Positions 24,302 through 44,501 of a stretch of DNA of 64,000 nucleotides are shown here, one piece after another. This DNA comes from Salinivirgaceae bacterium (lineage in GTDB: Bacteria; Bacteroidota; Bacteroidia; Bacteroidales; SZUA-534). The position numbers and the translations under genes are program-made. The stretch lies in NCBI GenBank assembly GCA_017551905.1, contig JAFZKK010000149.1, positions 9 through 64,008 of the forward strand, written 5' to 3'. The notes under the pieces were generated by a model that was given only the letters and a program-made list of their open reading frames with translations, did not search any database and was not told where the DNA came from. Within the stretch, counting starts at the first letter, position 1, and each line of letters starts with the position of its first letter.

Positions 24302-26875
24302 CTACAAATCCATAGTAGTATACCGTATTCCAATCACCAGAATATCGTCAACCTGGTCGTATTTAGTGCCGCGCCATTCTTCGTTGGCTATGCGTATCAG
24401 GTCTTTCTGTTCGCGCATCGGTTTGTCTTTGATGCTCTCGAGCAGGTCTTTGAACCGGCGTGTCAGGTATTTCTTGCCGTCATCGCCGCCAAATTGGTCA
24501 GTGATTCCATCGGAGAAGATGTAGAACTGGTCGCCCGGATTGAATGAGCGAACATTGTTGTAGTATGTGGTGTTGATTGAAGTGCCTGTAATATTGCTGC
24601 TTATCGGTATTTTGTCGCCTTTAATCTCCTCAAATCCATTTTGGTTGAACAGATAAAGAGGACGCATAGCCCCACTGTATTCGAGCGTGTGCAACTCTTT
24701 GTCAATCACCGCAAAGGCAATGTCCATACCGTCGTTGTTCTGCTCTTGTGAGTCGCTTTTGAGCGATATTTTGATTTTGCGGTTCAGGTTTTTCAAGATG
24801 TCGGCTGGTGTGTGTATCCCGTTGTGTATCACTATTGAATTGAGCAGATAGCTACCGATAATCGATAGGAACGCGCCCGGAACGCCGTGTCCCGTGCAAT
24901 CGACAGCCGCTATAAAGTATTTGTTCTCAATGCGATGATACCAATAAAAGTCGCCGCTCACAATGTCTTTCGGCATAAACAGCACAAAACTGTCGTTGAA
25001 GTCGCGGTGTATCTGCTTGGGTTTAGGCAAGATAGATGTCTGAATGCGTTTTGCGTAGCGTATGCTGCCGAACATCTCGTTCTGCCGGTTCTCTATTTCG
25101 TTTTTCTGCACAAGAGCAAGGTTGCGTTGCGTCTCGGCTTCGTTTTTCTGTTGCTCAATTTTTTTCTCGTACTGCTTAATCTGGGTTATGTCAGTGTCCA
25201 CCGATATAATCAGTTTCACCTCGTCGTTGTCGTCAAGAATAGGGGTGAGGGTGGTTTGCAGCCAGCGTTGGTCGTTTTCGTTCTTCATCTCCGACTCGTA
25301 GGCAACCACGCTTTTTTCCTTTAGCACCGATGCAATCACGTGTTTCAGATTCTTGTTTGAACTCACAGTGGTCACGTTTATCGGTTTCTCAAGGAATTTG
25401 TAGTCTTCAATGTCGATGTTGAGCCGTTTGCCGTAGGCTGCGTTGTACCAGTCGATATCGCCGTTCGGCTTATAGATGACAATCATGTTGTTCGACATGT
25501 TGGTCACGGTCGAAATCTTGCTTAGGTCGGCGTTTCGCATTTGCAGTAGCTCCTTTTGCGCACGCAGTTCCTCGCGTTGCGTCTGCAAGGTGTCGCGTTG
25601 CTGAATCAGCTCCTCACGCTGCGAACTCAGTTCCTCTTTCTGCAGGTTAATTAGCTCGGTGCGCTTCTTGATGCCTTCTTCCATGTTCTGGCTCACTTTG
25701 ATGTACTCGCTGCGCGCTCTCACAAATTTCCGTCCGAAAATGTACAGTAGCAGCAGCGCAGTCGTCATCATCGCTGTAAAGGCGAAATCTTCGTCGGAGT
25801 GCAGAAAGCCGATGCTCGATGAGTAGAAGAAGTATTTTATCGACATTTCCGCCAAAATCAAAGCCGATACTCCGACTCTCAGTTTGAAGAAATCGGAGCG
25901 GCGCTCGGTTGTCACAACGCAGTAGATGAAATATGCCAATACCGCCAGAATCATTGTGCAGATGAGGCCGGTAAACAGCATCCTAAGCCTTGACAGAATA
26001 TTGACAACAGTAGCAATGATGCATACGTAGGTTATTATCATTGAGGGCGATGTGTAACGGTGCCTCGTCTTTTTGGGTGTGAAGTTCCATTTTGTGTAAT
26101 AGGCAAATGCGGAAAAGGCGGCCGGCACTATGAAATGGAACATCATTATGTTGTTCGACGGTGTGTCGGGTGCCAGATATTTGAACAGTGTAGTGTCGTA
26201 CCACAGAGCCAATAGCATGGTGCTTAGCAGCAGCAGCGCATTGCTGATATACATCTTGTTTCGTTCCGACAGATAGCTTAGCAGACTGATAATCAGCACG
26301 GCAATCACCAGACCATAGGCAAAACCGTTTGTACGTTTTTGGGTGTTGCCTTCGTTCATGAAGCTGTCGCGGCTCCACATCTCCAGTTTGACGCTGCACA
26401 ACGATGTCTGTTTTGACAGTTTTATGCAGTATCGGCCTTTTTGTTTCGGCGCCAGGTTTATCTTGAAGGTGAAGTATTGCGAGTAAACATAGCGTTGGTA
26501 GGGGTAGAGCAGACCTGTGTTTAACGTTGTTGAGTCGATACCGTTGTAGAAGATTATTTCGGTAATCAGAGGGTTGTCGAGAGTCAGAAAGGCGGTGAAA
26601 TTTTCGTTTGTGGTGTTGTTTATGTCGATGAGCACCCAAATGTTGTTGCGGCCGCCGCCAATGTTTATCTGGTCGCTTGCCGACTGCGAAAAATTGCGGA
26701 AGAACCGCTCCGATATGGCGTCATCAATGGTGAGAGTGTTTGTCGGGTCTTCGTACACAAAGAAATGCTCGGCAAGGTCAATCTTGCCGTTGCGGTTTGC
26801 TTTGTTGATAACCACATTGGCTTTCAGCCCCATTGCGGTCACCACAAAAATCGCCAGCAATATTATTCTTCTCAT
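24302..26875 (-). CDS. 7TM-DISM receptor with coiled coil, PAS-like region and C-terminal PP2C/SpoIIE phosphatase domain
   Basis: Signal peptide plus an extracellular 7TMR-DISMED2-like domain, seven hydrophobic helices and a Q/E-rich coiled coil. The SpoIIE signature is present (SGDFYWY...DCTGHGVPGAFLS...SDGITDQFGG). Confidence 0.85.
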   Translation of the reverse strand: MRRIILLAIFVVTAMGLKANVVINKANRNGKIDLAEHFFVYEDPTNTLTIDDAISERFFRNFSQSASDQINIGGGRNNIWVLIDINNTTNENFTAFLTLDNPLITEIIFYNGIDSTTLNTGLLYPYQRYVYSQYFTFKINLAPKQKGRYCIKLSKQTSLCSVKLEMWSRDSFMNEGNTQKRTNGFAYGLVIAVLIISLLSYLSERNKMYISNALLLLSTMLLALWYDTTLFKYLAPDTPSNNIMMFHFIVPAAFSAFAYYTKWNFTPKKTRHRYTSPSMIITYVCIIATVVNILSRLRMLFTGLICTMILAVLAYFIYCVVTTERRSDFFKLRVGVSALILAEMSIKYFFYSSSIGFLHSDEDFAFTAMMTTALLLLYIFGRKFVRARSEYIKVSQNMEEGIKKRTELINLQKEELSSQREELIQQRDTLQTQREELRAQKELLQMRNADLSKISTVTNMSNNMIVIYKPNGDIDWYNAAYGKRLNIDIEDYKFLEKPINVTTVSSNKNLKHVIASVLKEKSVVAYESEMKNENDQRWLQTTLTPILDDNDEVKLIISVDTDITQIKQYEKKIEQQKNEAETQRNLALVQKNEIENRQNEMFGSIRYAKRIQTSILPKPKQIHRDFNDSFVLFMPKDIVSGDFYWYHRIENKYFIAAVDCTGHGVPGAFLSIIGSYLLNSIVIHNGIHTPADILKNLNRKIKISLKSDSQEQNNDGMDIAFAVIDKELHTLEYSGAMRPLYLFNQNGFEEIKGDKIPISSNITGTSINTTYYNNVRSFNPGDQFYIFSDGITDQFGGDDGKKYLTRRFKDLLESIKDKPMREQKDLIRIANEEWRGTKYDQVDDILVIGIRYTTMDL

Positions 26876-26935: not shown

Positions 26936-28945
26936 TTATTCTGATATTTTTTTGAATTTATCGATTCCTTCATCCAAAAAATCCACAAACTCGCTGACAT
27001 TCAGGTTGTAACCCATTGGCGGGACAAGTAGTTGGCCGTCGGTGTCGAGCAGGCAGTAGTAGGGTTGGGCGTTGATTTTGAAGCGGCTGATTTGAAAATC
27101 GGCATTCACCTTGCCGATGCTTTTCTTCACTTTGCCGTCGTAGGCCGATGTCACCCATTCCGATTCTGGCAGCATGGTTTTGTCGTCAACATAAAGAGCC
27201 ACAACTATATAGTCGTTGCGCAGGCGGTCGAGCACTTCGGCATCGGACCACACGCGGGCTTCCATCTCGCGGCAGTTGACGCAGCCGTGGCCGGTAAAAT
27301 CGATAAACAGCGGTTTGCCTTGCTCTTTGGCGCACGCAAGTGCCTGATTATAATTGAAATAACCTTGCAGTCCGTGTGGCAGATGCAGAAGGTCGGCATA
27401 TTTGGGTGTCTCGCAAATGGCTGATTCATAATCGTCTGCCACGGCGGCGGTTTTAGCCGAAAGGTCGAAGTCGATTGTTGTTTGCGGCGGCAGATATCCC
27501 GAAAGGGCCTTCAATGGCGCGCCCCACATTCCGGGAATCAGGTAGATGACGAACGCCAATGTGAGCATTCCGAGCAGCAGCCGCAGCACACGCACGGGTC
27601 TGTGCTTGGTGCCCCAAACTTGCAGTTTTCCAAGCAGAAACAGCGCCAGCAGACTGAAGTCGGCAATCCAAATGGCAAGATAGACTTCGCGGTCCAAGAT
27701 GCCCCAGTGGTAGGTTTGGTCGGCCACGCTCAGGAATTTCAAGCCGAGTGCAATCTCGATGAATCCAAGTGTTACTTTAACTGTATTGAGCCAACTGCCT
27801 GATTTTGGCAACTTTGTGAGCCACGATGGAAAGAACGCCAGCAGCGTGAACGGCAGTGCGAAAGCTGCCGAAAAAGCCAGCATTGTGATTATCGGTTCCC
27901 AAATGTCGCCCTGCGTCGATTTCACGAGTATTGTGCCGACAATGGGGCCCGTGCACGAGAACGACACCAAAACCAGCGTCAGAGCCATAAAGAGTACGCC
28001 CACAAGGCCGCCTTTGTTCGAATTTGAGTCGGCTTTATTTATTAGTGAGCTTGGCAGAACAATCTCGAACGCGCCCAAAAACGATGCGGCGAACACCATA
28101 AAAATGATGAAAAACAGCACGTTAGGCAGCCAGTGCGTCGAGAGCCAGTTAAAAATATCGGCTGTAACCGATTGTCCGCCAATCAAGTATGTTGCAAAAA
28201 TGATGATTGCGATTGGAATGGTGTAGAGCGCCACTATCGACAGCCCGAACGTAGTGGCCATCGAGCGTGAGCGGCCTTTGTTCTGTTCGTTTTTCAGGAA
28301 GAACGACACGGTCATCGGCACCATCGGGAAGACGCACGGCGTGAGCAACGCGGCAAAGCCCCACAGAATGGCCTCGAGAATCACTTTCCAGAGCGAGTTT
28401 GAGTTGGCGGTGTGCACTACGGGTTCACTTTCCGTTAGTTTTGCGCCGTCCGACGGCTCGGCAGGTGCCGGAACCGCACTCTGTCCGCCGTCTAAAAACG
28501 ACAGGCTGAATTCTTTGTCGCCCATCACGCATTGCTCGTCGCTACAAGCCTGATATTCAATCTTTCCGCTCACGGCAGGGGCGGGGCCGGTAACTTTGAA
28601 AGTCTGTGCGAAGTGCGCCTCACGACTGAAAAACCGCACCACTGCGCCGGCATACTCGTCGTTTTCCTCTGTCACTTTCGACAGCTCACGAACGGTGTCA
28701 ACTCGCTCAACATCTGTCAGTTGCTCGAACGTGAAACTTGTGGGCAGCGAGTAGTTGCCTTTGGGCAGATATTGCGCGAAAATGTGCCAATTGGCATCGA
28801 TTTGTGCCTTAAAATCAATCTGATACTCGGTATCGGACAGCTTTTGGCTACTGATGTTCCATTTGACCGGATTTTGGATTTGCGCGTTGACGGCTATCGT
28901 GCAAAACGCGAAAATTGCTGAAAGTGTTTGTTTTATGAATTTCAT
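26936..28945 (-). CDS. dsbD: protein-disulfide reductase DsbD family (N-terminal DsbD-alpha-like, CcdA membrane core, C-terminal thioredoxin)
   Basis: Membrane-core cysteines (LLTPCVFPMVP and SFSCTGPIVG) and a C-terminal thioredoxin CxxC (GHGCVNCREME). Confidence 0.85.
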   Translation of the reverse strand: MKFIKQTLSAIFAFCTIAVNAQIQNPVKWNISSQKLSDTEYQIDFKAQIDANWHIFAQYLPKGNYSLPTSFTFEQLTDVERVDTVRELSKVTEENDEYAGAVVRFFSREAHFAQTFKVTGPAPAVSGKIEYQACSDEQCVMGDKEFSLSFLDGGQSAVPAPAEPSDGAKLTESEPVVHTANSNSLWKVILEAILWGFAALLTPCVFPMVPMTVSFFLKNEQNKGRSRSMATTFGLSIVALYTIPIAIIIFATYLIGGQSVTADIFNWLSTHWLPNVLFFIIFMVFAASFLGAFEIVLPSSLINKADSNSNKGGLVGVLFMALTLVLVSFSCTGPIVGTILVKSTQGDIWEPIITMLAFSAAFALPFTLLAFFPSWLTKLPKSGSWLNTVKVTLGFIEIALGLKFLSVADQTYHWGILDREVYLAIWIADFSLLALFLLGKLQVWGTKHRPVRVLRLLLGMLTLAFVIYLIPGMWGAPLKALSGYLPPQTTIDFDLSAKTAAVADDYESAICETPKYADLLHLPHGLQGYFNYNQALACAKEQGKPLFIDFTGHGCVNCREMEARVWSDAEVLDRLRNDYIVVALYVDDKTMLPESEWVTSAYDGKVKKSIGKVNADFQISRFKINAQPYYCLLDTDGQLLVPPMGYNLNVSEFVDFLDEGIDKFKKISE

Positions 28946-32543: not shown

Positions 32544-33263
32544 CTAATTGTTTTTCAGAAACGCTTCGGCCTCAGCAATTTTCTCAACAGAGCCGGCGTC
32601 GAACCAATAGTCGCTTTGGTGCGGATATCCGATAATTTTGTGGGAGGAGGCAAGTTTCAAATAATGAGGAATTATCGGGAAGACATCGTCGTCGGGAAAT
32701 TTATCAATAATACTTGGCGAGATGATGTGAATGCCGCTGAAAGCATACTGCGAAAGCCCCGATTTTTCGGCCACGTATATGGCTTCGCACGTCTTTGTGT
32801 TCTGCCAGCCTTTAAGTTGTAAATTATTGTCAAACAACAGATAACGTGAACTTTTCCGCTCTCTTATAGCCAGTGTTGCGTCGGCTTTCGATTCAATGTG
32901 ACGGCGCAGCATTTTCTGTAAGTCGATGTTGCTCAGAATATCGACGTTGGTTATCATAATCGGAGCTTTGCCGCTGAACAAACCGATGGCTTTTTTCAGT
33001 CCGCCGCCCGTGTCGAGTAGCAAATCGCTCTCGTCGGAAATCAGAATGTCGATGTCGTATTTCAGGTTGGCGATGTATGTTTTCATCATTTCGGCAAAGT
33101 GGTGCACGTTGATAACCACACGTGTGACACCGTTCCTAATCAGTAACTCGATGCAGTGCTGCAAGAGCGTTTTTCCGCACACTTCGACCAAGGCTTTCGG
33201 CTTGTCGTTTGTCAGCGGCCGCAAGCGTGTGCCCAAGCCGGCGGCAAATATCATTGCTTCCAT
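32544..33263 (-). CDS. sugar-1-phosphate nucleotidyltransferase, MurU-like (N-acetylmuramate-1-P uridylyltransferase candidate)
   Basis: MEAMIFAAGLGTRLRPLTNDKPKALV is the NTP_transferase G-loop. About 240 aa. Collinear by eye with Pseudomonas MurU. It starts 11 nt after the AmgK-like gene. Confidence 0.7.
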   Translation of the reverse strand: MEAMIFAAGLGTRLRPLTNDKPKALVEVCGKTLLQHCIELLIRNGVTRVVINVHHFAEMMKTYIANLKYDIDILISDESDLLLDTGGGLKKAIGLFSGKAPIMITNVDILSNIDLQKMLRRHIESKADATLAIRERKSSRYLLFDNNLQLKGWQNTKTCEAIYVAEKSGLSQYAFSGIHIISPSIIDKFPDDDVFPIIPHYLKLASSHKIIGYPHQSDYWFDAGSVEKIAEAEAFLKNN

Positions 33264-33274
33264 TGTTTGACAGA

Positions 33275-34699
33275 TTAACTGATTGATGGGTTGAATATCT
33301 GATTGATTTTCAGTTCGCGATGAATGAGTTTTACGCGGACATTGTGCTTTTTGCTTATTGCTTCGGCAAAATTCTGCGCGCAATAGGCGGAGCGGTGCTG
33401 ACCGCCGGTGCAGCCAAAGCACACCATAAGTTTGGTAAAACCGCGCTCAATGTATTTTTCGATTGTAGGTGTCACAATATCAATGGCTTGCGACAGAAAA
33501 TGGTCGATAGTGGAGTTCGCTTTCAGAAAGTCGATAACCGGCTGGTCGCGTCCGGTAAGCATTTTGTACTCGTCGTAGCGGCCGGGATTGTGCTGCCCGC
33601 GGCAGTCGAACACAAAGCCGCCGCCGGTTTCAGCGTCTGTCGGAATGCCTTTTTTGTACGAGAAGCTGACAACGGTTACCGTCAGTCCGCTGTAGTCATC
33701 TTTTTCGGGTTCTTCAATCTCAATTTTGTCGGCAATCTCGCATAAATGCGGTAGAGGCAAAATGTTGAGTGCCAGCAAGTTTTTGAGGTTTTTCAGTGCA
33801 AACGGAATGCTTTCGATAAAATGCTGTTTTTTCTCGTAATAGCCTCTATATCCGTATGCACCAAGCACTTGCAGAGTTCTTATGAGAGCGAATATCTTGA
33901 ACTCGCGCTTCAGTTGCGCAGTGTCAATATCTATCAGTTTTTTAACCGACTCTAAATATTTGTTGAACAACAAATTGCGTGTTTCTTCGCTCAGCTTGGC
34001 TTTTGCCTGATACAAAAGCGAAGCCACATCGTAAGCCAATGGACCGTGTTTGCCGCCTTGAAAATCAATGTAATACGGAGTACCATTTTTCAACATTATA
34101 TTCCTCGACTGAAAATCGCGGAACATAAAGTATTGATTGTCAGTGCCAGCAACGGCTTGTTTTATTGTCTCAAAGTCGGTTTCAAGTTTTTGCTCGTCGA
34201 AGTTGATGTGAGCGTTTTTTAAGTAACAGTATTTGAAATAGTTAAGGTCCCATTGAATGGCTGTTTGGTCAAAATTTTGAGAGCCTATGCACAGACTGTA
34301 ATCGATTTTCCTTCCGGCCGAAATCTGTATTTTGGCCAAATCGTCTAAAACTTTGGAAAACAGCTTTATAAGTTCGCTATCTGGATTGCCGTCGGCTGCC
34401 GTTACCAAGTCGTAGAGCGTTTCACGGCCAATGTCTTCCACCAAATAGTAGCGCATGGTGTCATCGTGAGAGAGCACTGTCGGCACATTTATTCCGCAGT
34501 CGGTAAATGTCTGTGTGAAAGATAGATATGCTTTGTTTTCTGTTGTGTCATCGTTGTGAACGGCTAAAACCGTTGTGCCGTCGGAGGCCGTAAGACGGTA
34601 GTAGCGCCGGTTTGAGCCGGAGTGGGGCAGTGGCTCGCATTTTTTGTACGGCTCGCCAAATCTCTCCTGAAAAAGCCGTTCTATTGTGTTGTCTGGCAT
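33275..34699 (-). CDS. fusion protein: aminoglycoside-phosphotransferase-fold (AmgK-like) kinase + RapZ C-terminal-like domain
   Basis: The N-terminal ~330 aa are APH-fold (FRDFQSRNIMLKNGTPYYIDFQG catalytic loop). The C-terminal ~140 aa match the RapZ/YvcJ C-domain (VVSFSYKKGIP...FVFDCRGQHNPGR...LTGRD..V..FL...GCTGGQHRS). Confidence 0.7.
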   Translation of the reverse strand: MPDNTIERLFQERFGEPYKKCEPLPHSGSNRRYYRLTASDGTTVLAVHNDDTTENKAYLSFTQTFTDCGINVPTVLSHDDTMRYYLVEDIGRETLYDLVTAADGNPDSELIKLFSKVLDDLAKIQISAGRKIDYSLCIGSQNFDQTAIQWDLNYFKYCYLKNAHINFDEQKLETDFETIKQAVAGTDNQYFMFRDFQSRNIMLKNGTPYYIDFQGGKHGPLAYDVASLLYQAKAKLSEETRNLLFNKYLESVKKLIDIDTAQLKREFKIFALIRTLQVLGAYGYRGYYEKKQHFIESIPFALKNLKNLLALNILPLPHLCEIADKIEIEEPEKDDYSGLTVTVVSFSYKKGIPTDAETGGGFVFDCRGQHNPGRYDEYKMLTGRDQPVIDFLKANSTIDHFLSQAIDIVTPTIEKYIERGFTKLMVCFGCTGGQHRSAYCAQNFAEAISKKHNVRVKLIHRELKINQIFNPSIS

Positions 34700-34708
34700 A
34701 TAATTAGC

Positions 34709-35053
34709 TTATAACGAGGCAATTGCTTCGTCTAAATTGCTGTAAATGTCAAGAATCTGATTAATGCGTGTCATTGTTATCACATTGTTAACCGACTGGC
34801 TCAGATTGAAGAATTTCAGCTTGCAGTTGTTGTTGCGCGAGTGGTTGTAAATGCTTATCAATGTGCCTAATCCGGTACTATCGATAACCTCGATGTTGCT
34901 CATATCAACTAGAATCGAAAGGTAATAATGCTGGTCGACAAGCTCGTTGAGTTGATTTTTTATCTCGTTGTCGCTTGAAACCGTCAGACGGTTGTTTTCT
35001 GGCATGGGGGTTACTATGGCGCAACCTGCAATCTGATTGTCTATCTTTATCAT
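34709..35053 (-). CDS. STAS-domain protein (anti-sigma-factor antagonist, SpoIIAA-like)
   Basis: 114 aa. The STAS core is VIDSTGLGTLISIY, carrying the conserved phosphorylatable Ser/Thr position in DSTG. Confidence 0.85.
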   Translation of the reverse strand: MIKIDNQIAGCAIVTPMPENNRLTVSSDNEIKNQLNELVDQHYYLSILVDMSNIEVIDSTGLGTLISIYNHSRNNNCKLKFFNLSQSVNNVITMTRINQILDIYSNLDEAIASL

Positions 35054-35101
35054 AATTAGTGAGATATAAGAGTCCTAAGTTTAAAGTTTTAAGTTAGAAA
35101 G

Positions 35102-37435
35102 TTATGATTTAGTGTCAGCGTTAGTGTCTGTGTCAGCGTTAGTGTCAGTGTCAGTGTTTGCGTTATTTATGCTTTGCCGCAGCAATTCTATTTCCGACAA
35201 CACATCGGTGCTGACCGATATGAAGTTGGTTACGATTCCTGCATACGTGTCGATGTCTTCGCCGGTTTTGGTTTTCTTCTCAAGCGTGGCCATGTCGAGA
35301 CGCAACGACTCAATACCCATAAGCGCCACCGATGATTTGGTCTTGTGCGCTATTGCCCCAAGTTGCGCATAATTCTTTTCTTGCAAAGCTTTTTCGAGCC
35401 CTACGGCCAATATCGGCATCTGTTGCACAAAAACATCAATCAGTTCTTGTTTGAATTTGTTGTCGCCGCCCGTAATCGAGTCTAAATGAGCCGGATTGAT
35501 GAACTTGAAATTGTTATATTCCGTAGCGGTTTCTGTTGCGGGCTGTTGCTCGGCGGCTGGTGCCTTTTTGCCGATATGCTTTTGAATCATGTTGATAAGG
35601 TCTTGTGTCTCAAATGGTTTCGAAATATAATCGTCCATTCCGGCGGCAAGACATTTCTCTTTTTCGCCTTTTATCGCAGCTGCGGTCAGCGCAATGATTG
35701 GTATGGTGCGTTTTTCCTGATTTTCCATCTTCCTGATGACCGAAGTGGCAGTGTAACCGTCCATTTCCGGCATGTGTAAGTCCATAAGTATCACGTCGAA
35801 AGGCTCTTTTTTGAGTAGGTCGATGACTACTTTTCCGTTTGGCGCAACCATTATGTTGAAGTCTTTTTTCAAGATTGTCTTCACAAACAATTGGTTTATC
35901 TCGTTGTCTTCGGCCAACAGAATGTTTGGTGTGTAATTGAGCAACTTCTCTGGCTTGTTTGTGCTTGATTCTGTGCTCTTTGTCACAACGGGTTCTTTGC
36001 TGTGCTTGTAAGTTATCTCCAAACAGAAGCTACTGCCCAATCCGTTTTCGCTGTTGAGCGTAATGTTGCCGCCTTGCAGCTCGGCAAGCTGTTTCGAAAT
36101 GGTCAGTCCCAAGCCGGTGCCGCCGTATTTGCGGGTGGTGTCGCTACTTGCTTGTGAGAAGCTCGAGAAAATAAGCTCTTGCTTGTCTTTAGGTATGCCG
36201 ATGCCGGTGTCGTGTACAATGAAATTCAGTTTGCTGGAGTTTTTGGTCTGGCTTACCACGCTGACTGTAAGTGTGATACCGCCATATTCGGTGAATTTGA
36301 GCGCATTGCTCAAAAGGTTGTTCAGAATCTGGTTCAGCCTTGTCGGGTCGCCGATAACGTTCTCTGGTGTGCGCGGGTCGGTGTTCACTTTGAAGTACAG
36401 ACCTTTGTTTTTGGTGTGCTGCGTGTAAATGGCTGACAGATTTTCGATTATATTGTGCAGATTGAAACTGATGTTCTCAATCTCCATTTTTCCGGCCTCA
36501 ATTTTCGAGAAGTCGAGAATGTCGTTTATGATTATCAGTAGGTTGTTGGCCGATATGGTGATGTTGTTAAGGAAAGTGTGCTGTTCCTCAGTTAGTTTAG
36601 TCTCGTTAAGCAGCCGTGCCATACCCACAATTCCGTTCATAGGCGTGCGTATCTCGTGGCTCATGTTGGCAAGGAACTGGTCTTTCACTTTTGCCAGATT
36701 CTCGGCTTGCTCCTTGGCTATTGTCAGGTCGATGTTCTGTTTTTTTATCTGCCGAATCATCATGTTGAAGCCTTTCATCAGCTCGCCAATCTCATCGTTG
36801 CGCTTTTCGATTTTTTTAACCTGATAATCAGTAATATCCGACATTGTGCGCATGGTTATTGTCAGGTCGATGATTGGGTTTGTGATGGCGTCCTGCATCT
36901 TGCTCGACAGCAGCAGCGCGATAATCATCGACACAATTATCATTATCAGCACCACTTGAGCCAGCTGTTTTATGTGCATGTGATATTCGTCGAGGCTGGC
37001 TTGCAGGAATATGGAGCCGATTTTTTCATCGTCAAGTATTATTATCCGGCTGACAAGCAATGCGTTATCGACAAAGGCGAATGTGTCGCGCTCCGATATG
37101 AAATTCAGGTTGGTGTTGCTGTATTTGGCCGATTTGGTGTATTCGGCAAAAATGCGGTTGTTGTTGTCGTAGATTCGGGCGGCGCAGATGTTTGTATCGA
37201 CGCTGAGTGTCTGCAGCACCGTTTGCGCCTCCTCGGGGTAATCGAACGTGATGTTGGCGGTGTTGTTGCTACCGACAATGTCGGCAAGTATTGTCAGGTT
37301 GTTGAGCGCCTGACGGTCGAACTGCCGCTTGTCGTAGCGGGCAAAGATGATACTTGCTATGACAATGGCTATAAAGCTGATTATCATCACAAGTATGGTG
37401 ATTTTCGTACGTATCGATAAATCCTTAAAACTCAT
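35102..37435 (-). CDS. hybrid sensor histidine kinase / response regulator (TM sensor, HAMP, HisKA, HATPase_c, REC, HPt)
   Basis: H-box [17 protein letters not shown] boxes ([29 protein letters not shown]). Receiver ([11 protein letters not shown]...[12 protein letters not shown]). HPt ([11 protein letters not shown]). The 5' end overlaps the upstream yfiR-like gene by 11 nt. Confidence 0.9.
35111..35158 (-). repeat. coding copy of the (ACTGAC/ACTAAC-type) hexanucleotide repeat, encoding the kinase tail [16 protein letters not shown]
   Basis: The minus strand reads AACACTGACACTGACACTAACGCTGACACAGACACTAACGCTGACACT. The first 21 nt are identical to 12078-12098. Confidence 0.9.
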
Positions 37436-37973
37436 CTTCCTTGGTCGATATTATTTTTGCGAGCAGCAGCAGTTTGGGGCTGATTTTCACACCGATACCG
37501 TCGGCGGCGTCTTTGTTTATCTCAAACTGGTGCTTCGAGAACTGCGGCATGAAATTGATTATTCCGCCCGTTATGCAGAATCCCGCTATTTCGTCGCCTA
37601 TGGTCACTATCGGCTTCTTGTCGATGGCTTTCAGAACCTGCATTATCTCGTGTTGCCTGGTGCCCGAAAGAATCAATATGTGGCAGTTTCCAATATCGTT
37701 AGTGTTGTTTACCCGTCTGATGTTCCAGCTGCGGCCGTTGGCTTTCCGGCCTATCATGGTCTTTTCCAGAATGATACCGAACGGGTCGTCTTTGTAGATG
37801 CACAGTTGAATGGTGTCGCCGATGTAGTTTTCGGGCCACTCTATGAATTTCGCAAAGTTGAAGATGTAGGCCGCTTTAACCTCATATTCAGAATATTGCG
37901 CGTGCGCGCTGCCAGCAATCAAGCTTAAGACCGCTATCGCTCCGACTATCGTTATGTTTCTGATTGTCTTCAT
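37425..37973 (-). CDS. YfiR-family (DUF4154) periplasmic protein
   Basis: Signal peptide, then [20 protein letters not shown], the hallmark N-terminal motif of DUF4154/YfiR proteins. Confidence 0.8.
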
Positions 37974-37979
37974 AATAGC

Positions 37980-40442
37980 TTAATCTTTAAGTTCGAAAAG
38001 GTTTATCTCTACGCGGCGGTAGTTCATCTCGCGCGTTTTAGCTTCGTAGCGCCCGTGCTCGGTCGATTCGCCATGGCCTTGGGTTATTATCTTTCGTCCG
38101 TCGACATTTTGTTCGAGCAGATACTTCAGAACGTTCTGCGCTCGTCGTTGCGACAGGCTGTAGTTGTGCTCGGCTTCGCCCAGTTGGTCGGCGTAACCGT
38201 TAATCTCAGCACCTATCTTTTCGTTGTCAATCAGCAAGTTGATAATTTGCTGAAGGCCTTTTTTGTCTTTTTCTGTCAGCTCGCTCAAATCGTTACCATA
38301 ATATATGGTGTGCGTGTAGACAATTTTCCGCTGTTCTTGTTGCGATGTCTTGAACTGAGCCAGTTTGCTCTCTTTCTTGTCTTCGTTGTTGGCAACACGT
38401 CGGGGATGCGAGTAGCGGCGGCTGAGGTCGATAGGAGCGGCGGTGTAGAAGGTGTCGCGGCCTATGACTTGCATTGTCAGTGAGTTGTTTTGGTCGCCGT
38501 CGGTGTAGAAGTGTGTCTCGGTAACTTTGCCTTTCTGTTTCGAGTTGGCGTCAAGAATGCTCAGCGTCACGGGGTCGTTGGTGTTGATGGCGTCCTCAAT
38601 CATGTTGAGCAAGTTGTCGGTGTTCTCTTTCAGCTTCTGTTTGTTGCCCTGCGTGTATGTGGCGTCGGAGTAGTTCAGTTTGCTTATGGTGTCCGATGTC
38701 TGGATTATATTCTCCACTAAATCAAGAAGATGCTCGTAGTACTTTGGTTGCTTGAGCGAGTCGTTTTGTTTTATCGAGTCGGCTTCGTTTGTCTGGTAGA
38801 TGTCGTAGAAGATGTTGTTGACAATCACTTCCTCGCCTATGCTCTTGTTGTTCAGTTCGATAGGCGTAAGCGTTATCTCTTGATACAGCTCGTAGAAATA
38901 GTTCTGATAGGGGATGTGGACGCTGATGAGCTGCGGCATGAAGTTGGGTGTCGAAATCACCAGTTGGTAGTTCTTTGCCGGCGGGAAAATCATCAGGTAT
39001 TTGCCTGTTTTTGAATCGGGTGTGTAGACATATTTTACCTCCTCCTGGGTGTTTTTGTCATACACTTTTATGTCCACCTTCAAAGGTTTGCCCGTGTCGC
39101 CGGCTTTGACGGTTCCTTTAACAAGTGTCAGCGGAATGGGGTCGGTGTAGTCGGCCTTCATTATCGACTGCCTGTTGTAAGGATTGTTCTTCGACGACGC
39201 GAAATAGCCCGTCTCACCGCTTGCGTTCAGCATAAAGTTGAAGTCGTCGAGCGTGGTGTTTGTAAAGCCCATATTTTCCGGCTCGGTCCAGCCGTTGAAC
39301 TGCCGTGTGGTGCGGAAGATGTCGCGGCCGCCCATTGTCTTGTGTCCCTCAGAGCTGAAGAAGAGCGTGCGTCCGTCATAGTGTATGGTTGGCGCGTCCT
39401 CGTCATATTTGGTGTTCACCTTGTCGCCAAGGTTCTCGGGCTCGCCCCATTCGCCTTTCTTGTTGATAGTCGATACGTAGATGTCGCGGCCACCAAGTCC
39501 GCCCGGGCGGTCACTCACAAAATAGAGTTTGGTGCCGTCGGGGGTGATGCTGGCTGAGCCTTCATAATAAGGTGTGTTTATGTTCTTGTTCAGCTTTTTG
39601 ATGTCGCTGATGGTTTTGCCTTGCAGCTGCCCGATGTAGATGTCCTGGTTAAGACCATCGCCGATGTTCAGGAAAACCGAGCGTCCGTCGGGCGACAGGC
39701 CGGCCAGACGTATCTCGTGGTTCAGCAATTTATGCTCGGCTACAATCTCAACTTTTTCGGCCCGCCGCCAGTTGTCGAGCGAGTCTTTGGTCGAAATCAT
39801 TATGCTTTTGGTTGTGGGCACGCCCTTGCCAAAGTTGTATTCGCGCATCAGCAACATTATGCTTTCGTCGGCGCTAATCAGCGGAAAATAGTCCGATTCG
39901 GTCGAGAACAGGCCATTCACGGCTTCAACCTTCACTTTGTAGGGACGGTCCATTATCTTTATGGCTGTCTCGCAAATCGTAATCATGCGTTTGCAGTAGT
40001 TCAGCTTGTTGATGTCGGCGTTGTTGGTCTTGGCTGTTTTCGAAATGTATTTGTTGTACTCTTTTATGGCGTCTTCAAACCGATATTCGACATGATAGGC
40101 GTCGCCCAGGTAGATTATAGCGTCCATTGGGATGAGCGTGCCCGACGACGGCGCCACCTCTTCCAGATATTTTATCGACTGGTATTTGTTGGCTTGCGAG
40201 TTAAGGTAGCAAATGCCGATGTGGTAGGGCAGATTGATATCGTCGATAATCGAATCGAGCTTCAGATAGAGCGGAAGCGCTTTCTCATATTGGCCTGCGG
40301 TGAAGTAGTTGTGCGCCGTTTTGAACATTTTGCGTTCCGACTGCGAATACTGAGCGACAGCATGATGACTCACCGTCAGCAACAAAATGCCGACAGCAAT
40401 CTTACCGATTAAACTTTTTACACAAATTTTGTTTGAAGTCAT
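37980..40442 (-). CDS. OmpA-family outer-membrane protein with TPR, PD40/TolB-like beta-propeller repeats, beta-sandwich and C-terminal OmpA peptidoglycan-binding domain
   Basis: PD40-like repeats (SPDGRSVFL, TPDGTKLYFVSDRPGGLGGRDIYVS, DGRTLFFSSEGHKTMGGRDIF). OmpA_C (INGYADQLGEAEHNYSLSQRRAQNV...RRVEINL). Confidence 0.85.
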   Translation of the reverse strand: MTSNKICVKSLIGKIAVGILLLTVSHHAVAQYSQSERKMFKTAHNYFTAGQYEKALPLYLKLDSIIDDINLPYHIGICYLNSQANKYQSIKYLEEVAPSSGTLIPMDAIIYLGDAYHVEYRFEDAIKEYNKYISKTAKTNNADINKLNYCKRMITICETAIKIMDRPYKVKVEAVNGLFSTESDYFPLISADESIMLLMREYNFGKGVPTTKSIMISTKDSLDNWRRAEKVEIVAEHKLLNHEIRLAGLSPDGRSVFLNIGDGLNQDIYIGQLQGKTISDIKKLNKNINTPYYEGSASITPDGTKLYFVSDRPGGLGGRDIYVSTINKKGEWGEPENLGDKVNTKYDEDAPTIHYDGRTLFFSSEGHKTMGGRDIFRTTRQFNGWTEPENMGFTNTTLDDFNFMLNASGETGYFASSKNNPYNRQSIMKADYTDPIPLTLVKGTVKAGDTGKPLKVDIKVYDKNTQEEVKYVYTPDSKTGKYLMIFPPAKNYQLVISTPNFMPQLISVHIPYQNYFYELYQEITLTPIELNNKSIGEEVIVNNIFYDIYQTNEADSIKQNDSLKQPKYYEHLLDLVENIIQTSDTISKLNYSDATYTQGNKQKLKENTDNLLNMIEDAINTNDPVTLSILDANSKQKGKVTETHFYTDGDQNNSLTMQVIGRDTFYTAAPIDLSRRYSHPRRVANNEDKKESKLAQFKTSQQEQRKIVYTHTIYYGNDLSELTEKDKKGLQQIINLLIDNEKIGAEINGYADQLGEAEHNYSLSQRRAQNVLKYLLEQNVDGRKIITQGHGESTEHGRYEAKTREMNYRRVEINLFELKD

Positions 40443-40516: not shown

Positions 40517-41314
40517 ATGTCTTTTTTCAATGGATTGATAAACAGATTGTTTCCCGCGAAAAATCTTTCTTCAGCCATGCGTCGGGCGGGCTATTTGAAA
40601 GACCAGACGGGCATCCGCAGGCGTTATGAGCGCGAACAAGAGCCATGGCAACAGCATATCGACAACACGCGGAGGTTTATTGTTGAGTCGGCGCGGAAAG
40701 TGGCAAGCCACAAGTCGGTGGCGGTGCTCGGCAGCGGCTGGTTGCTCGATGTGCCTGTCGATGAGCTATCGCAAATGTTTGAGAATGTGTATCTTGTCGA
40801 CATTGTGCACCCTGAGCCGGTAAAAGTGCGGGCGCGCAAACTGGGCAATGTGCATCTGGTGGAGGCCGACCTCACTGGTGGCGCCGTGCAGATGGCTGTC
40901 AACGCACGCTCGTTTCAGCAATTTGTTGACAATTTGAAGAATATCAAACCTGATGCTGAGCTGTCGGGGTACGATTTTGTGGTGTCGGTCAATTTGCTCA
41001 ATCAGCTCGATATAATAATGTGCGACTATCTGCAAGAACGATTCTGTGTTGATAATCAGCAACTTGAGCCGGTGCGCGCCATGGTTCAGCAACGCCATAT
41101 CGACAGTCTGCCAATCGAAAAAAGCTGCCTGATAACTGATTATCAGCAAATTGACACTGATATAGACGGCGCGGTTACCGCCACAGTCAATCTTCTTCAT
41201 TGCAAACTGCCCGATGTGGGCGAAAAAAAGGAGTGGAATTGGCTGTTTGACACCAATCAGCGTTATTCTGTAAAAAATAACACCACATTTAAGGTAATGG
41301 CTTTTTGTTTTTAG
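40517..41314 (+). CDS. hypothetical protein, possibly class I SAM-dependent methyltransferase fold
   Basis: Rossmann-like pattern VAVLGSGWLLD ... VYLVDIVHP ... DFVVSVNLLNQL, read by eye. There is no firm family assignment. Confidence 0.35.
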   Translation: MSFFNGLINRLFPAKNLSSAMRRAGYLKDQTGIRRRYEREQEPWQQHIDNTRRFIVESARKVASHKSVAVLGSGWLLDVPVDELSQMFENVYLVDIVHPEPVKVRARKLGNVHLVEADLTGGAVQMAVNARSFQQFVDNLKNIKPDAELSGYDFVVSVNLLNQLDIIMCDYLQERFCVDNQQLEPVRAMVQQRHIDSLPIEKSCLITDYQQIDTDIDGAVTATVNLLHCKLPDVGEKKEWNWLFDTNQRYSVKNNTTFKVMAFCF

Positions 41315-41378
41315 GCCGAACTTTATAATTTTAGCGTTTTTCAGTAAATGAATTTGGATAACATTTAAGTTCAATATT

Positions 41379-42437
41379 ATGACAAGATTACGACTTATTT
41401 CCATTGCTGGAACACTGTTGATTTCCCTGTCGGGAATGGCTCAAAATGCCGTCAATAAAGATTCCACACTTGTAGTGGCCGACAATCAGGAGGCCGAAGT
41501 GGCATTTAATGCCGGCAACGATTTTGTTGCGCAAAAGAATTATCAAGAGGCGATAAACAGCTTCACTAAAGCTTTGTCGGTGAACCCGAAATTTACCAAG
41601 GCCATGGTGAACAGAGCTTTCGCCAAGTCGGAAATGGCCGATTACAGCGGCGCCATAACCGATTTCACAATGGCTATCGAGATTGAGGAGTCGCCTGTGG
41701 CTTACTACGGACGCGGTCTGGCTTACTTCAACCAGAACAACTCGAGCGACGCGCTCAACGATTTCGAGCTTGCCATAAAAGCCGGCTACGACGAGGCAAA
41801 GGTTTACTATTACGCCGGTGTCGCTCATTTTGAGTGCGGCAACTACGAGGAGAGTGTCAACAACCTAACGCTTTCAATCACCTTCGACGGCAACAACGCC
41901 CAGGCCTACAACGACCGCGGCAGCGCCAAGCGTATGAAGGAGGATTACGACGGCGCCATTGCGGATTATCAGCAAGCTATCAAGATTGACCCGAAGCTGG
42001 CCACAGCCTATAACAACCTTGCCAGTGCATTGCTCAAGAAGGGCAACATCGACGATGCCATAAGCAACTACGGTCTGGCTATCGGTCTCGACCAGGATTA
42101 TGTTATCGCCTACAACAACCGCGCTCGCGCCAAGTTTGAGAAGAATGACTTCGACGGAATGATTGCCGATTGCCAGAAGGCTGTCGAGATAAATCCGAAC
42201 TACGCATACGCATATAATAATATGGGTATCGCCCAGATGAAGAAGAAAGACTACGATGCCGCTTACCAGTCGTTCAGCAAGGCCATTCAGGTGAACGAGA
42301 ATTTTGCCGAGGCTTATCTGAATCGCGGTTCGTGCCTCGAAATGCAGCGCAAGTTTGAAGACGCCGTTGCCGACTGGCGCATGGCTTACAAACTTGGCAT
42401 CACCAAGGCCAGAAACTATATCTCATTCTACGAATAA
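41379..42437 (+). CDS. secreted tetratricopeptide-repeat protein
   Basis: Signal peptide plus about 8 canonical 34-aa TPR units (A..Y..RG.A....DY.GAI.D...AI..DP). Confidence 0.8.
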   Translation: MTRLRLISIAGTLLISLSGMAQNAVNKDSTLVVADNQEAEVAFNAGNDFVAQKNYQEAINSFTKALSVNPKFTKAMVNRAFAKSEMADYSGAITDFTMAIEIEESPVAYYGRGLAYFNQNNSSDALNDFELAIKAGYDEAKVYYYAGVAHFECGNYEESVNNLTLSITFDGNNAQAYNDRGSAKRMKEDYDGAIADYQQAIKIDPKLATAYNNLASALLKKGNIDDAISNYGLAIGLDQDYVIAYNNRARAKFEKNDFDGMIADCQKAVEINPNYAYAYNNMGIAQMKKKDYDAAYQSFSKAIQVNENFAEAYLNRGSCLEMQRKFEDAVADWRMAYKLGITKARNYISFYE

Positions 42438-42449
42438 TCTGATAATACG

Positions 42450-44501
42450 ATGAATATGAAAAAATTATATATTGTTTTGATTGCGGTTTTGTGCAGCTCA
42501 GCCGCATTTGCGCAAGATGTTCCTTTCGACAAGAATTTATTCCAGAATCAGAAAGACGCTTTTAAGGAGGCTAACAACAACCTGAAAGACGGTGAGTCGT
42601 ATTACAGCAAGGAGCAATACCATGAGGCTCTTCAGTATTATCTTGAGGCTCAGAAGTTTAACCCGAATTTCTCTACATTGAACTATCGTATTGGCGTGTG
42701 CTATATGAACTTGTCGGCCAAATACAAAAGTCTTGAATATTTTGAAAAGGCCTACCAGTTGCGCCGCGATGTCGCCGACGACATTCATCTGATGCTTGCT
42801 CGCAGCTATCATCTTAACAATCAGTTCGATAAAGCTATTGCGGAATACAAGGCTCACATAGCTGTCATTCCGCCGGTTGATGCTCCCAAAGAGCGCCCGC
42901 TGATTGAGAAATACATTGCTGAGTGCAACGCCGGAAAAGCCATGATTGAAGAGCCGGCCCGCGCTTTTGTCGATAATGCAGGCTCGGTGCTCAACTCGCG
43001 CTTCAACGACCATAGTCCGCTGATTTCAGCCGACGAGTCGATGATGATTTTCACATCGACGCGCAACAACGGCCGTACAGTCAATGGTTACGACGGTCAG
43101 TACGACGAGGACATCTACACCAGTATCAATGTCGATAAGAATTGGAAAGTTCCGGAGTCGATAGGTGAGCCAATTAACACGCAGTTCGACGATGCTACCG
43201 TGGGTTTGTTCCCCGACGGTCAGCAACTTCTTATCTACAACGGACGTAAGGGTAGTGGCGACATCGAGGTTTGCTCGCTGAAAGGCGACAAGTGGGAGTA
43301 CCCGAAGTCGATGCCGAAACCAATCAACACTGAATATCGTGAGACCTCGGCTTGCTTCTCGCCCGATGGACGGCAAATCTATTTCGTGAGCGACCGTCCG
43401 GGCGGATACGGTGGCAGCGATATTTATGTGAGCACACGCGGCCCGAAAGACAAATGGAGCGAGCCGGTGAACCTTGGCCCGACTATCAATTCGGAATATG
43501 ACGAGGAGGCAGTGTTTATGCACCCTGATGGCCGTACGCTCTATTTCAGCTCGACCGGCCACAATACAATGGGCGGCTACGACATCTTCACATCAAGAAT
43601 GGACGACAGCGGCAAATGGAGCGAGCCTGTCAATCTGGGCTATCCAATCAACTCGTCGGACCACGACCTTTGCTTTGTGATTTCGGCAAACGGACGCCAC
43701 GGCTATTTCAGTAGCACACGTCCCGACGGCTCTGGCGGTCTGGATATCTATCGTGTAACCTTCCTCGGACCCGAAAAGCCATACACTCTGTCGGGTGAGG
43801 ACAACCTGATTTCGGCGCGCTCGCAACCGGTTTCCGATATGGTTATGGAGGCTTCGGTTGAGCTTGTCACCATTCGCTTGACAATTGTAAAAGGCACTGT
43901 CCGCGACGCTATCAGCAATGACCCGGTAAGCGCAACTATCGATATTATTGATAATGAGAAGAATGAGGTCATCTTCACCTCACAGACCAACTCCGCTACC
44001 GGTAAATTCCTTGTCTCGCTGCCTTCTGGTAAGAACTACGGTCTGGCTGTGAAAGCCGACAACTATCTGTTCCATTCGGAGAACTTCGATATTCCGGCTG
44101 CAACTGAGTATCAGGAGATTGAGAAGGATATCGCTTTGAACAACATCAAGAAAGACGTGAAGATAATCCTGAAAAACGTCTTCTTTGAGACAGGCAGCGC
44201 CAAGTTGAAACCGACATCGTACGCCGAGCTGGGCCGTCTGACAAAGATGATGAGCGACATGCCGGCAATGCGCATCGAGATTTCGGGACACACCGACAAC
44301 CAGGGCAGCAAGGTTACCAACCAACGTCTGTCGGAGGCTCGTGCCAAGGCCGTTGTCGACTTCCTGATTTCGGAAGGTGTCGATGCAAGCCGTCTTGAGT
44401 ACAAGGGCTACGCTTTCGACCAGCCGGTGGCCGACAACTCCACCAAGGAGGGACGCGCAATGAACCGCCGTGTCGAGTTTAAGGTGTTGAGTACAGAATA
44501 A
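42450..44501 (+). CDS. OmpA-family outer-membrane protein with TPR, PD40/TolB-like repeats, beta-sandwich and OmpA_C domain (paralog of 37980-40442)
   Basis: Same architecture and motifs as the paralog (SPDGRQIYFVSDRPGGYGGSDIYVS, DGRTLYFSSTGHNTMGGYDIF). OmpA_C is ISGHTDNQGSKVTNQRLSEARAKAV...NRRVEFKV. Confidence 0.85.
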   Translation: MNMKKLYIVLIAVLCSSAAFAQDVPFDKNLFQNQKDAFKEANNNLKDGESYYSKEQYHEALQYYLEAQKFNPNFSTLNYRIGVCYMNLSAKYKSLEYFEKAYQLRRDVADDIHLMLARSYHLNNQFDKAIAEYKAHIAVIPPVDAPKERPLIEKYIAECNAGKAMIEEPARAFVDNAGSVLNSRFNDHSPLISADESMMIFTSTRNNGRTVNGYDGQYDEDIYTSINVDKNWKVPESIGEPINTQFDDATVGLFPDGQQLLIYNGRKGSGDIEVCSLKGDKWEYPKSMPKPINTEYRETSACFSPDGRQIYFVSDRPGGYGGSDIYVSTRGPKDKWSEPVNLGPTINSEYDEEAVFMHPDGRTLYFSSTGHNTMGGYDIFTSRMDDSGKWSEPVNLGYPINSSDHDLCFVISANGRHGYFSSTRPDGSGGLDIYRVTFLGPEKPYTLSGEDNLISARSQPVSDMVMEASVELVTIRLTIVKGTVRDAISNDPVSATIDIIDNEKNEVIFTSQTNSATGKFLVSLPSGKNYGLAVKADNYLFHSENFDIPAATEYQEIEKDIALNNIKKDVKIILKNVFFETGSAKLKPTSYAELGRLTKMMSDMPAMRIEISGHTDNQGSKVTNQRLSEARAKAVVDFLISEGVDASRLEYKGYAFDQPVADNSTKEGRAMNRRVEFKVLSTE

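Follow-up and report, generated by a model that had tools for sequence, protein, structure and literature searches.

A probable four-gene envelope-signalling operon of Bacteroidota that combines a PorE-like protein, a YfiR-like protein, a CHASE8 hybrid histidine kinase and a STAS protein

Envelope-stress sensing is well mapped in Proteobacteria, in which the Rcs, Cpx, sigma-E and YfiBNR systems operate, and poorly mapped in Bacteroidota, the bacteria that dominate gut and rumen communities. The 64,000-nt stretch analysed here, from the genome of a rumen Bacteroidales bacterium of the Salinivirgaceae (contig JAFZKK010000149.1; hereafter the window), contains what is most likely a four-gene envelope-signalling operon, which is a Bacteroidota variant of a module composed of an envelope protein, a YfiR-like protein and a CHASE8 sensor. 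The four operon proteins are referred to in transcription order as P0001 to P0004 (Table 1). A first reading made from the DNA alone (the sequence-only reading) had placed the first three genes, tightly packed, on the minus strand, and the open reading frames (ORFs) match its coordinates exactly, including the 6-nt gap between P0001 and P0002 (37974-37979) and the 11-nt overlap between P0002 and P0003 (37425-37435). Three points were overlooked at that stage, namely the CHASE8 domain of the kinase, the STAS gene of the same unit and the signal peptidase I (SPase-I) leader of P0001, which lacks a lipobox.

Table 1. Features of the operon, with positions in the window
Feature	Position	Strand	Description
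P0001, PorE-family paralog	37980-40442	(-)	820 aa ORF
P0002, YfiR-fold (DUF4154) secreted protein	37425-37973	(-)	182 aa ORF
P0003, hybrid histidine kinase	35102-37435	(-)	777 aa ORF
P0004, STAS protein, fourth conserved operon gene	34709-35053	(-)	114 aa ORF
Clade-specific insert of P0001	38316..38801	(-)	residues about 548-709, between beta-sandwich and OmpA_C
CHASE8 sensor domain of P0003	37004..37315	(-)	residues 41-144, PF17152
Candidate Bacteroidota-type promoter upstream of P0001	40466..40495	(-)	TTTG + 18-nt spacer + TAACTTTG

The kinase ATG sits within the 3' codons of the P0002 gene, where GAT GAG TTT TAA doubles as ATG AGT TTT AA., and the ..DEF tail of P0002 and the MSF start of P0003 therefore share the same bases. 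The overlap of Escherichia coli yfiR and dgcN likewise amounts to 11 nt. The STAS gene follows the kinase gene after 48 nt, and a terminator scan of the minus strand from 34700 to 40442 revealed no terminator-like site. By direct reading of the sequence, the candidate promoter ends 23 nt before the P0001 ATG; it was recognized by its likeness to the TTTG / TAnnTTTG consensus of Bacteroides and Flavobacterium promoters.

The assignment of P0002 to the DUF4154 family, suggested earlier, was borne out by hidden Markov model (HMM) comparison, in which the protein matches DUF4154/YfiR (PF13689) with 137.4 bits over the entire profile (positions 1-143 of 143), as well as by its match to the solved YfiR structures 4yn7/4zhu in the PDB (E 4e-7). 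Neither the YfiR equivalog NF053586 (46.7 bits, cut-off 85) nor the top NCBIfam match, NF053591 (TOL_0243 YfiR-like; 106.2 bits, cut-off 125), is reached at its cut-off. The leader ends in ..AHA, followed by QYSEYE, and the protein closes with the tail ..KEDEF. Residues shared with Pseudomonas aeruginosa YfiR include W61, P62, A89-N90-G91-R92, C110, C145, F162, E163, N165, D167, P178 and L181, while other positions differ (S57K, R60E, S146I, L166K, I169A, R171G, V176I, H177S and C152N). The replacement of C152 removes the second YfiR disulfide, C145-C152, and C71 is retained only within the genus of the window. The central F162/E163 surface is thus retained in P0002, with several YfiB contacts lost. 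This surface was tied to YfiN binding by Malone et al. (PMC3375315), and the surfaces of YfiR for YfiB and YfiN have been shown to overlap (PMC4887326).

In P0003, every domain named by the sequence-only reading was recovered in Pfam, always above the gathering cut-off (HAMP 25.5, HisKA 77, HATPase_c 93.7, Response_reg 87.9 and Hpt 28.4 bits), and the previously missed CHASE8 domain scores 45.6 bits (cut-off 27). Two hydrophobic segments, TM1 (about residues 12-32) and TM2 (about 158-178), flank CHASE8, and the protein shows the layout of a YfiN-type sensor, in which CHASE8 lies between two transmembrane (TM) segments and is followed by HAMP. The CHASE8 domain of E. coli YfiN/DgcN (residues 45-146, 115.7 bits) belongs to the same Pfam family, and the DgcN motif AAVVF (EAAVVF) aligns with ANITF of P0003 (residues 60-64), the final aromatic residue being kept in 20/20 aligned sensors. 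Residues 7-231 match NF053592, a family of YfiR-like protein-associated sensor histidine kinases, with 169.2 bits, the cut-off of 194 not being reached. Since the DUF4154 and CHASE8 families are shared, P0002 and the P0003 sensor are homologous to YfiR and the YfiN sensor, and the likeness extends beyond mere layout. The GGDEF output of YfiN/DgcN is not found in P0003, whose output consists of HisKA, HATPase_c, Response_reg and Hpt, with all phospho-sites retained (H260 in HisKA, D552 in REC and H696 in HPt).

The description of P0001 as an 820-aa TPR/PD40/OmpA_C protein agrees with Pfam (PD40 62.6 bits; OmpA, PF00691, 58.6 bits at residues 715-805; TPR weak). Its top NCBIfam matches are PorE (NF052230; 193.4 bits, cut-off 600) and CHU_0125 (189 bits, cut-off 620), and neither match comes near its cut-off; the true PorE of the genome is encoded elsewhere (G000:C136:41419-43341, 684.6 bits), and a type IX secretion system (GldM) is encoded as well. 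An AlphaFold2 (AF2) model built on 34 orthologs, with a mean predicted local distance difference test score (pLDDT) of 79 and a predicted template modelling score (pTM) of 0.53, shows a TPR domain (34-165), a TolB-like beta-propeller (170-432), a beta-sandwich (439-546) and OmpA_C (705-818), which is the PorE-like order of TPR, WD40/PD40 propeller, CRD-like beta-sandwich and OmpA_C. The insert that precedes OmpA_C is modelled as three helices (567-632, pLDDT 42-58) and a small sheet (634-667, pLDDT ~84). A Foldseek search with the model returned TolB propellers (E 2e-8), Pal/OmpA_C domains (target-based TM-score, TMt, up to 0.85) and 6top, which is the C-terminal domain of PorE. A neighbouring 683-aa paralog aligns collinearly with P0001 and lacks the insert of ~160 aa. 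Among 34 orthologs of P0001, D752 is nearly invariant and R767 invariant, and these residues correspond to the Asp/Arg pair that holds the diaminopimelate carboxylate in OmpA-like domains. A reading of the peptidoglycan-binding motif as degenerate is not supported, since GYAD...RRA retains both the Asp and the Arg.

P0001 was previously considered an outer-membrane protein. However, its leader is of the SPase-I type (..HHAVA, then QYSQ), without a lipobox or a Cys at the cleavage site, and the protein is therefore predicted to be periplasmic and cell-wall-bound. Nearly all orthologs have the same leader type, one (L090, ..TTGC..) being ambiguous. Taken together, P0001 is best described, on the features of its sequence, as a periplasmic, wall-anchored PorE paralog that is predicted to bind peptidoglycan via OmpA_C. 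Mature P0001 (from residue 31) and mature P0002 (from residue 26) both begin with Gln, as do most of their orthologs, and this fits the pyroglutamate 'Q-rule' of Bacteroidota signal-peptidase-I substrates.

P0004 matches the Pfam STAS family with 53.7 bits and narrowly misses the cut-off of TIGR00377 (52.8 bits, cut-off 53.45). It carries the motif IDS[ST]G with a phosphorylatable Ser (S58), which does not vary among the 30 aligned STAS proteins linked to the operon, and accordingly belongs to the DS[ST]G-bearing type of STAS anti-sigma antagonists (SpoIIAA/RsbV). In nearly all loci in which the kinase has a fused HPt domain, the STAS gene comes next; kinases without HPt are usually followed by a stand-alone HPt protein of about 115 aa, and in one locus kinase, HPt and STAS genes are consecutive. 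From these features, P0004 may act as a partner-switch output.

The conservation of this arrangement was surveyed in 24 genomes of the window's family (8 genera), in 401 evenly sampled genomes of the order, in a public genome scan with a 6-sequence alignment as the query and in 401 genomes sampled from the phylum. Because related genomes are not independent samples, only counts are given. The PorE-like, YfiR-like and kinase genes are adjacent in all 24 genomes of the family, with order and strand preserved, at identities down to 48% for P0001, 53% for P0002 and 46% for the kinase sensor. The YfiR-like clade, defined by E at or below 1e-22, is present in 42/401 genomes of the order, belonging to 20 families. 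In about 30 of 39 loci fetched from outside the window's family, the YfiR-like gene is immediately preceded by a PorE-like gene and immediately followed by a CHASE8 kinase gene, with gaps mostly between -29 and +20 nt; two of the others are cut by contig ends, three have an upstream TonB-dependent receptor and four have no such neighbour. The same triad was found in about 45 of the 58 loci of the public scan, close relatives being rumen metagenome-assembled genomes (MAGs) from water buffalo, sheep and yak. Counted over 107 distinct YfiR-like genes, a PorE-like gene lies directly upstream in 78 and, in 72 of these 78, a kinase gene lies directly downstream; the PorE-like adjacency spans at least 16 families of the order, at 30-50% identity, and an overlap between the yfiR-like and kinase genes is present at almost all loci. 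The recurrence of the triad in every genome of the family and in many other families indicates that the arrangement is not due to chance, and the proposal that the three genes form a conserved unit holds in other genomes.

The strongest evidence came from the reciprocal test. The insert of P0001 was found in 34/401 genomes of the order; each of these 34 belongs to the 42 carriers of the YfiR-like clade, and the insert was found in 0/359 of the others. P0001 is thus a dedicated, co-inherited partner of this YfiR-like clade. In addition, two genomes of the window's family each have a second copy (L017, L018) in which a PorE-like and a YfiR-like gene are paired without an adjacent kinase gene, and this suggests that the two proteins are directly linked; in two more loci (L057/L061) such a pair has a downstream side that is cut or unclear. 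In Cytophagales, among them Flammeovirgaceae MAGs and the cultivable Flexithrix dorotheae DSM 6795 and Rapidithrix thailandica JCM 23209, the YfiR-like protein and the kinase are preceded by a TPR/PD40 protein of 762-779 aa.

The YfiR-like/CHASE8 pairing extends beyond the PorE-linked loci. In the phylum sample, the closest YfiR-like genes outside the order all adjoin CHASE8 kinase genes; three such loci were fetched, two of which have an upstream TonB-dependent-receptor-like gene (assigned at the BLAST level) and the third an unassigned 875-aa gene. The receptor arrangement also occurs in Cloacimonadota and Hydrogenedentota MAGs, in which the receptors match Pfam Plug. This trio has the same order as the window's operon, with an envelope protein followed by a YfiR-like protein and a CHASE8 sensor, and the window's YfiR-like clade branches among receptor-linked YfiR-like proteins. 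The partner differs, being an outer-membrane barrel in the trio and a predicted periplasmic wall-binding propeller protein here; no experimental study of the trio was found in the literature searched. In a tree of 107 YfiR-like proteins, rooted on E. coli YfiR and with sampling centred on P0002, all PorE-linked rows fall into one clade of 87 rows (Shimodaira-Hasegawa-like approximate likelihood ratio test, SH-aLRT, 87), and the receptor-linked rows form a grade outside it, with none inside. The simplest reading of this topology, which has moderate support, is a single replacement of the TonB-dependent receptor by a PorE paralog. The genome itself holds three more DUF4154 paralogs (G000:C1:28965-36125 and G000:C11:13178-15904): two form a tandem in which each copy precedes a TonB-dependent-receptor-like gene (1019 and 931 aa), and the third is followed by a gene for a 662-aa membrane protein that has GAF and PAS domains but lacks a kinase domain.

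The YfiR-like clade also has a conserved C-terminal tail, E-x-x-F. It is present in 62 of 67 proteins whose partner has both the insert and OmpA_C, in 0/11 receptor-linked proteins and in 0/6 proteins whose partner has neither the insert nor OmpA_C (four from Cytophagales, and L056 and L060). As the tail codons overlap the kinase start, this conservation could come from the overlap; the two pairs without a kinase keep the tail nonetheless (..LADEF in L017, ..DEDNF in L018), which argues for selection on the protein. That the tail docks on the partner is taken as a lead only. The mature N-terminal motif QY[ST]EYE.K was also considered as a partner-specific feature and was ruled out, since three receptor-linked proteins share it.

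Comparison with YfiBNR (TpbB/DgcN in P. aeruginosa and E. coli; HmsCDE in Yersinia) places the operon close to this system in its core and apart from it in its periphery. A secreted DUF4154 protein, a CHASE8-HAMP inner-membrane sensor, the 11-nt overlap of the two genes in E. coli and the window and a third partner with a Pal-like OmpA_C domain are common to both. The output is HisKA-HATPase-REC-HPt with STAS here and GGDEF there; the partner is an 820-aa soluble PorE paralog encoded upstream of the yfiR-like gene, whereas YfiB is a 160-aa lipoprotein whose gene lies downstream of that for the sensor; the YfiR and YfiN-type equivalog cut-offs are not reached by P0002 and P0003, and the C145-C152 disulfide is not kept. 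The suggested triad of outer-membrane, periplasmic and inner-membrane components as in YfiBNR consequently stands for the secreted YfiR-like protein and the CHASE8 membrane sensor, but not for P0001, which is predicted to be periplasmic. Nor is P0001, which the sequence-only reading placed in the position of YfiB, a relative of that protein. It reaches 47.3 bits against the YfiB model NF053585 (cut-off 128) over model positions 47-158, which cover the OmpA_C core only and leave the N-terminal YfiR-binding segment of YfiB (the F48/W55/F57 region) outside the match; the PDB match to YfiB (E 2e-4) is confined to the same core. The two proteins thus have only the generic OmpA_C in common, and they differ in the lipobox and in gene position.

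The replacement of cyclic di-GMP (c-di-GMP) synthesis by a phosphorelay, the other central suggestion of the sequence-only reading, agrees with the presence of HisKA, REC and HPt and the lack of GGDEF, but this rewiring is not new. Distant YfiNR pairs were reported by Malone et al. in 2012 to occur mostly without YfiB and with kinase, HPt or methyl-accepting chemotaxis protein (MCP) outputs, and the YfiR-YfiN[PAS/HAMP] core was proposed to be an ancient portable module with varied outputs (PMC3375315). Such YfiR-like/kinase pairs are likewise represented by the NCBIfam models NF053591 and NF053592, which are the families closest to P0002 and the P0003 N-terminus; the window's proteins score below both cut-offs (106 vs 125 and 169 vs 194 bits), and the pairs described earlier were said to lack a YfiB-type partner, whereas a dedicated PorE-like one is present here. 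No paper describing a PorE-like partner of a YfiR-like protein was found in the literature searched, in which DUF4154 is mentioned by a single paper. The new element is therefore the dedicated PorE-like third partner, the YfiR/CHASE8 module with kinase output being already known. PorE itself has been described as an outer-membrane-associated lipoprotein with TPR, WD40 and CRD domains plus an OmpA_C domain (PMC12773672, PMC7192894). P0001 resembles PorE (PG1058) of Porphyromonas gingivalis and CHU_0125 of Cytophaga hutchinsonii in its TPR-propeller-CRD-like-OmpA_C architecture and in the Asp/Arg pair; it differs from them in its scores (193/189 vs 600/620 bits), the missing lipobox, the additional ~160-aa insert and its linkage to a signalling pair, not to secretion genes.

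These observations can be joined in a working model. P0002 would bind the CHASE8 domain of P0003 and hold the kinase in one signalling state, while P0001 would be tethered to the cell wall by OmpA_C. Upon a change in the state of the wall or the outer membrane, P0001 may capture P0002, probably via the insert just before OmpA_C, which is located where YfiB has its YfiR-binding segment and is a candidate YfiR-like-binding region. Such binding would shift the state of the kinase, either by release of repression, as in YfiBNR, or by activation, and the signal would leave by a His-Asp-His phosphorelay to a receiver and, directly or indirectly, a STAS partner switch. Homology, gene order and co-occurrence together make it slightly better than an even bet (a probability of about 0.55) that P0001 acts on the kinase through P0002, and sequestration of P0002 by P0001 is suggested by analogy with YfiB. 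The fuller proposal, in which the PorE-like protein is the input sensor of an undescribed Bacteroidota envelope-stress pathway, its insert captures the YfiR-like protein, the CHASE8 kinase signals to STAS and a soluble sensor has replaced a TonB-dependent receptor, is put forward only tentatively.

Several findings weigh against this model. P0001 has neither the YfiB-specific N-terminal segment nor a lipid anchor, and several of the YfiR residues that contact YfiB are altered in P0002 (R60E, S57K, I169A, R171G, H177S). The Cytophagales TPR/PD40 partner has neither the insert nor OmpA_C, so that the contact may instead be made by the TPR or propeller part. The conserved gene order speaks for a functional link and not for its nature. 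P0001 and P0002 lie in the same frame, separated by a stop and two codons, and were modelled by AF2, in lieu of a multimer, as a read-through fusion of 1005 aa, with TAA read as G; the alignment combined unpaired rows with 10 rows of paired orthologs. The fusion gave a pTM of 0.49, which is no gain over the 0.53 of P0001 alone. Within it, the YfiR part reached pLDDT 73-88, the P0002 tail stayed below 50 and the insert rose by about 10 pLDDT. On the output side, a receiver-PP2C protein (HsbR/RsbU-like) that might link HPt to STAS was sought, and none of the 24 SpoIIE/PP2C genes of the genome has a BLAST-detectable receiver; the two best are a dCache-PP2C-HATPase_c_2 protein and a 416-aa PP2C protein.

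An alternative to capture is positive co-sensing, in which a ligand-loaded YfiR-like adaptor activates the kinase, as in TorT-TorS and LuxP-LuxQ, and the PorE-like protein is only a scaffold that keeps the adaptor at the cell wall or a protein that delivers the ligand; the signal would be a small molecule and not envelope mechanics. P. aeruginosa YfiR does bind vitamin B6 and L-Trp in the hydrophobic pocket that takes F57 of YfiB (PMC4887326), ligand or peptide binding is common for TPR and propeller domains, and the upstream partner elsewhere is a TonB-dependent receptor, a ligand-handling protein that would fit a substrate-linked signal. However, P0002 has only part of the pocket (P178 and L181 are retained, with L166K, I169A and V176I changed), the gene context suggests no ligand, and the characterized relatives, YfiBNR, act by repression and sequestration. 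Co-sensing is considered unlikely.

It is also conceivable, if rather improbable, that the PorE-like and YfiR-like proteins form a structural or secretion complex of the envelope and that the kinase is merely co-expressed with this complex or regulates it, taking no input from it. The two pairs without an adjacent kinase (L017, L018) fit such a complex, as do the type IX secretion system of the genome, the second PorE-like gene and TPR gene that divergently adjoin the operon in many genomes, and the structural or secretion roles described for PorE and CHU_0125 (PMC7192894, PMC12773672, PMC5891637). On the other hand, the true PorE is encoded elsewhere, the sensor of the kinase is CHASE8, whose sole studied partner is YfiR, and the kinase gene is bound to the yfiR-like gene by overlap nearly everywhere and follows in 72/78 PorE-linked loci. 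Finally, an OmpA-family gene lying by chance beside an independent YfiR-like/kinase pair is very improbable, for although many YfiNR-type pairs function without a third partner (PMC3375315) and a few clade loci (L038, L049, L062) have no adjacent PorE-like gene, this is contradicted by synteny over at least 16 families at 30-50% identity and by the joint presence of the insert and the YfiR-like clade in 34/34 genomes, and the L038 and L049 genomes carry an insert-bearing gene on another contig.

The operon, conserved as it is across at least 16 families of the order, offers a concrete and testable candidate for envelope sensing in Bacteroidota. It also extends the view of the YfiR/CHASE8 core as a portable module, whose envelope partners include a Pal-like lipoprotein, a TonB-dependent receptor and a PorE-like protein, and whose outputs include c-di-GMP, phosphorelay and chemotaxis. 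The value of the case is limited in that the core YfiR-like/kinase pairing was already known and the argument is computational.

The output side recalls the HptB-HsbR-HsbA pathway of Pseudomonas, in which a hybrid kinase that includes an HPt step is coupled with a STAS protein with a phosphorylatable Ser (PMC5085249, PMC6482189), with the difference that no HsbR-like receiver-PP2C-kinase protein is found among the 24 PP2C genes here. These genes of the 3.1-Mb genome mostly encode sensor proteins of ~750 aa, five stand in a row on contig C136, and the copy in the window (24302-26875, minus strand) has a 7TMR-DISM-PAS-PP2C architecture. Against these 24 there are only four STAS matches (three of them small STAS proteins) and two RsbW-like kinase domains, and the partner-switch network of the genome is thus very lopsided.

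Downstream of the operon, directly after the STAS gene, lies a gene for a 474-aa protein (33275-34699, minus strand) that combines an AmgK-like sugar kinase (APH family; NF045759, 91 bits) with a RapZ C-terminal domain (PapZ_C, 115 bits), and next to it a gene for a MurU-like nucleotidyl transferase (32544-33422, minus strand). The two look like a MurNAc/GlcNAc recycling pair with an unusual fusion, and their place downstream of the operon is kept in the window's genus and in one other genus. About 6 kb downstream, a DsbD-like thiol:disulfide interchange protein (DsbD_N, DsbD_TM, thioredoxin-like) is encoded at 26936-28945 on the minus strand; YfiR is redox-sensitive, and no conserved linkage of the DsbD-like gene to the operon was seen. 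On the other side, a divergent block (40517-44501, plus strand) encodes a 265-aa protein, with no match in Pfam (E up to 5) or to PDB sequences (E up to 1), a 352-aa TPR protein and the 683-aa second PorE-like paralog, which has a TPR-PD40-CarboxypepD_reg-OmpA architecture and scores 305 bits against the PorE model, below its cut-off. The same block is found again next to the operon within the window's family and in several further families.

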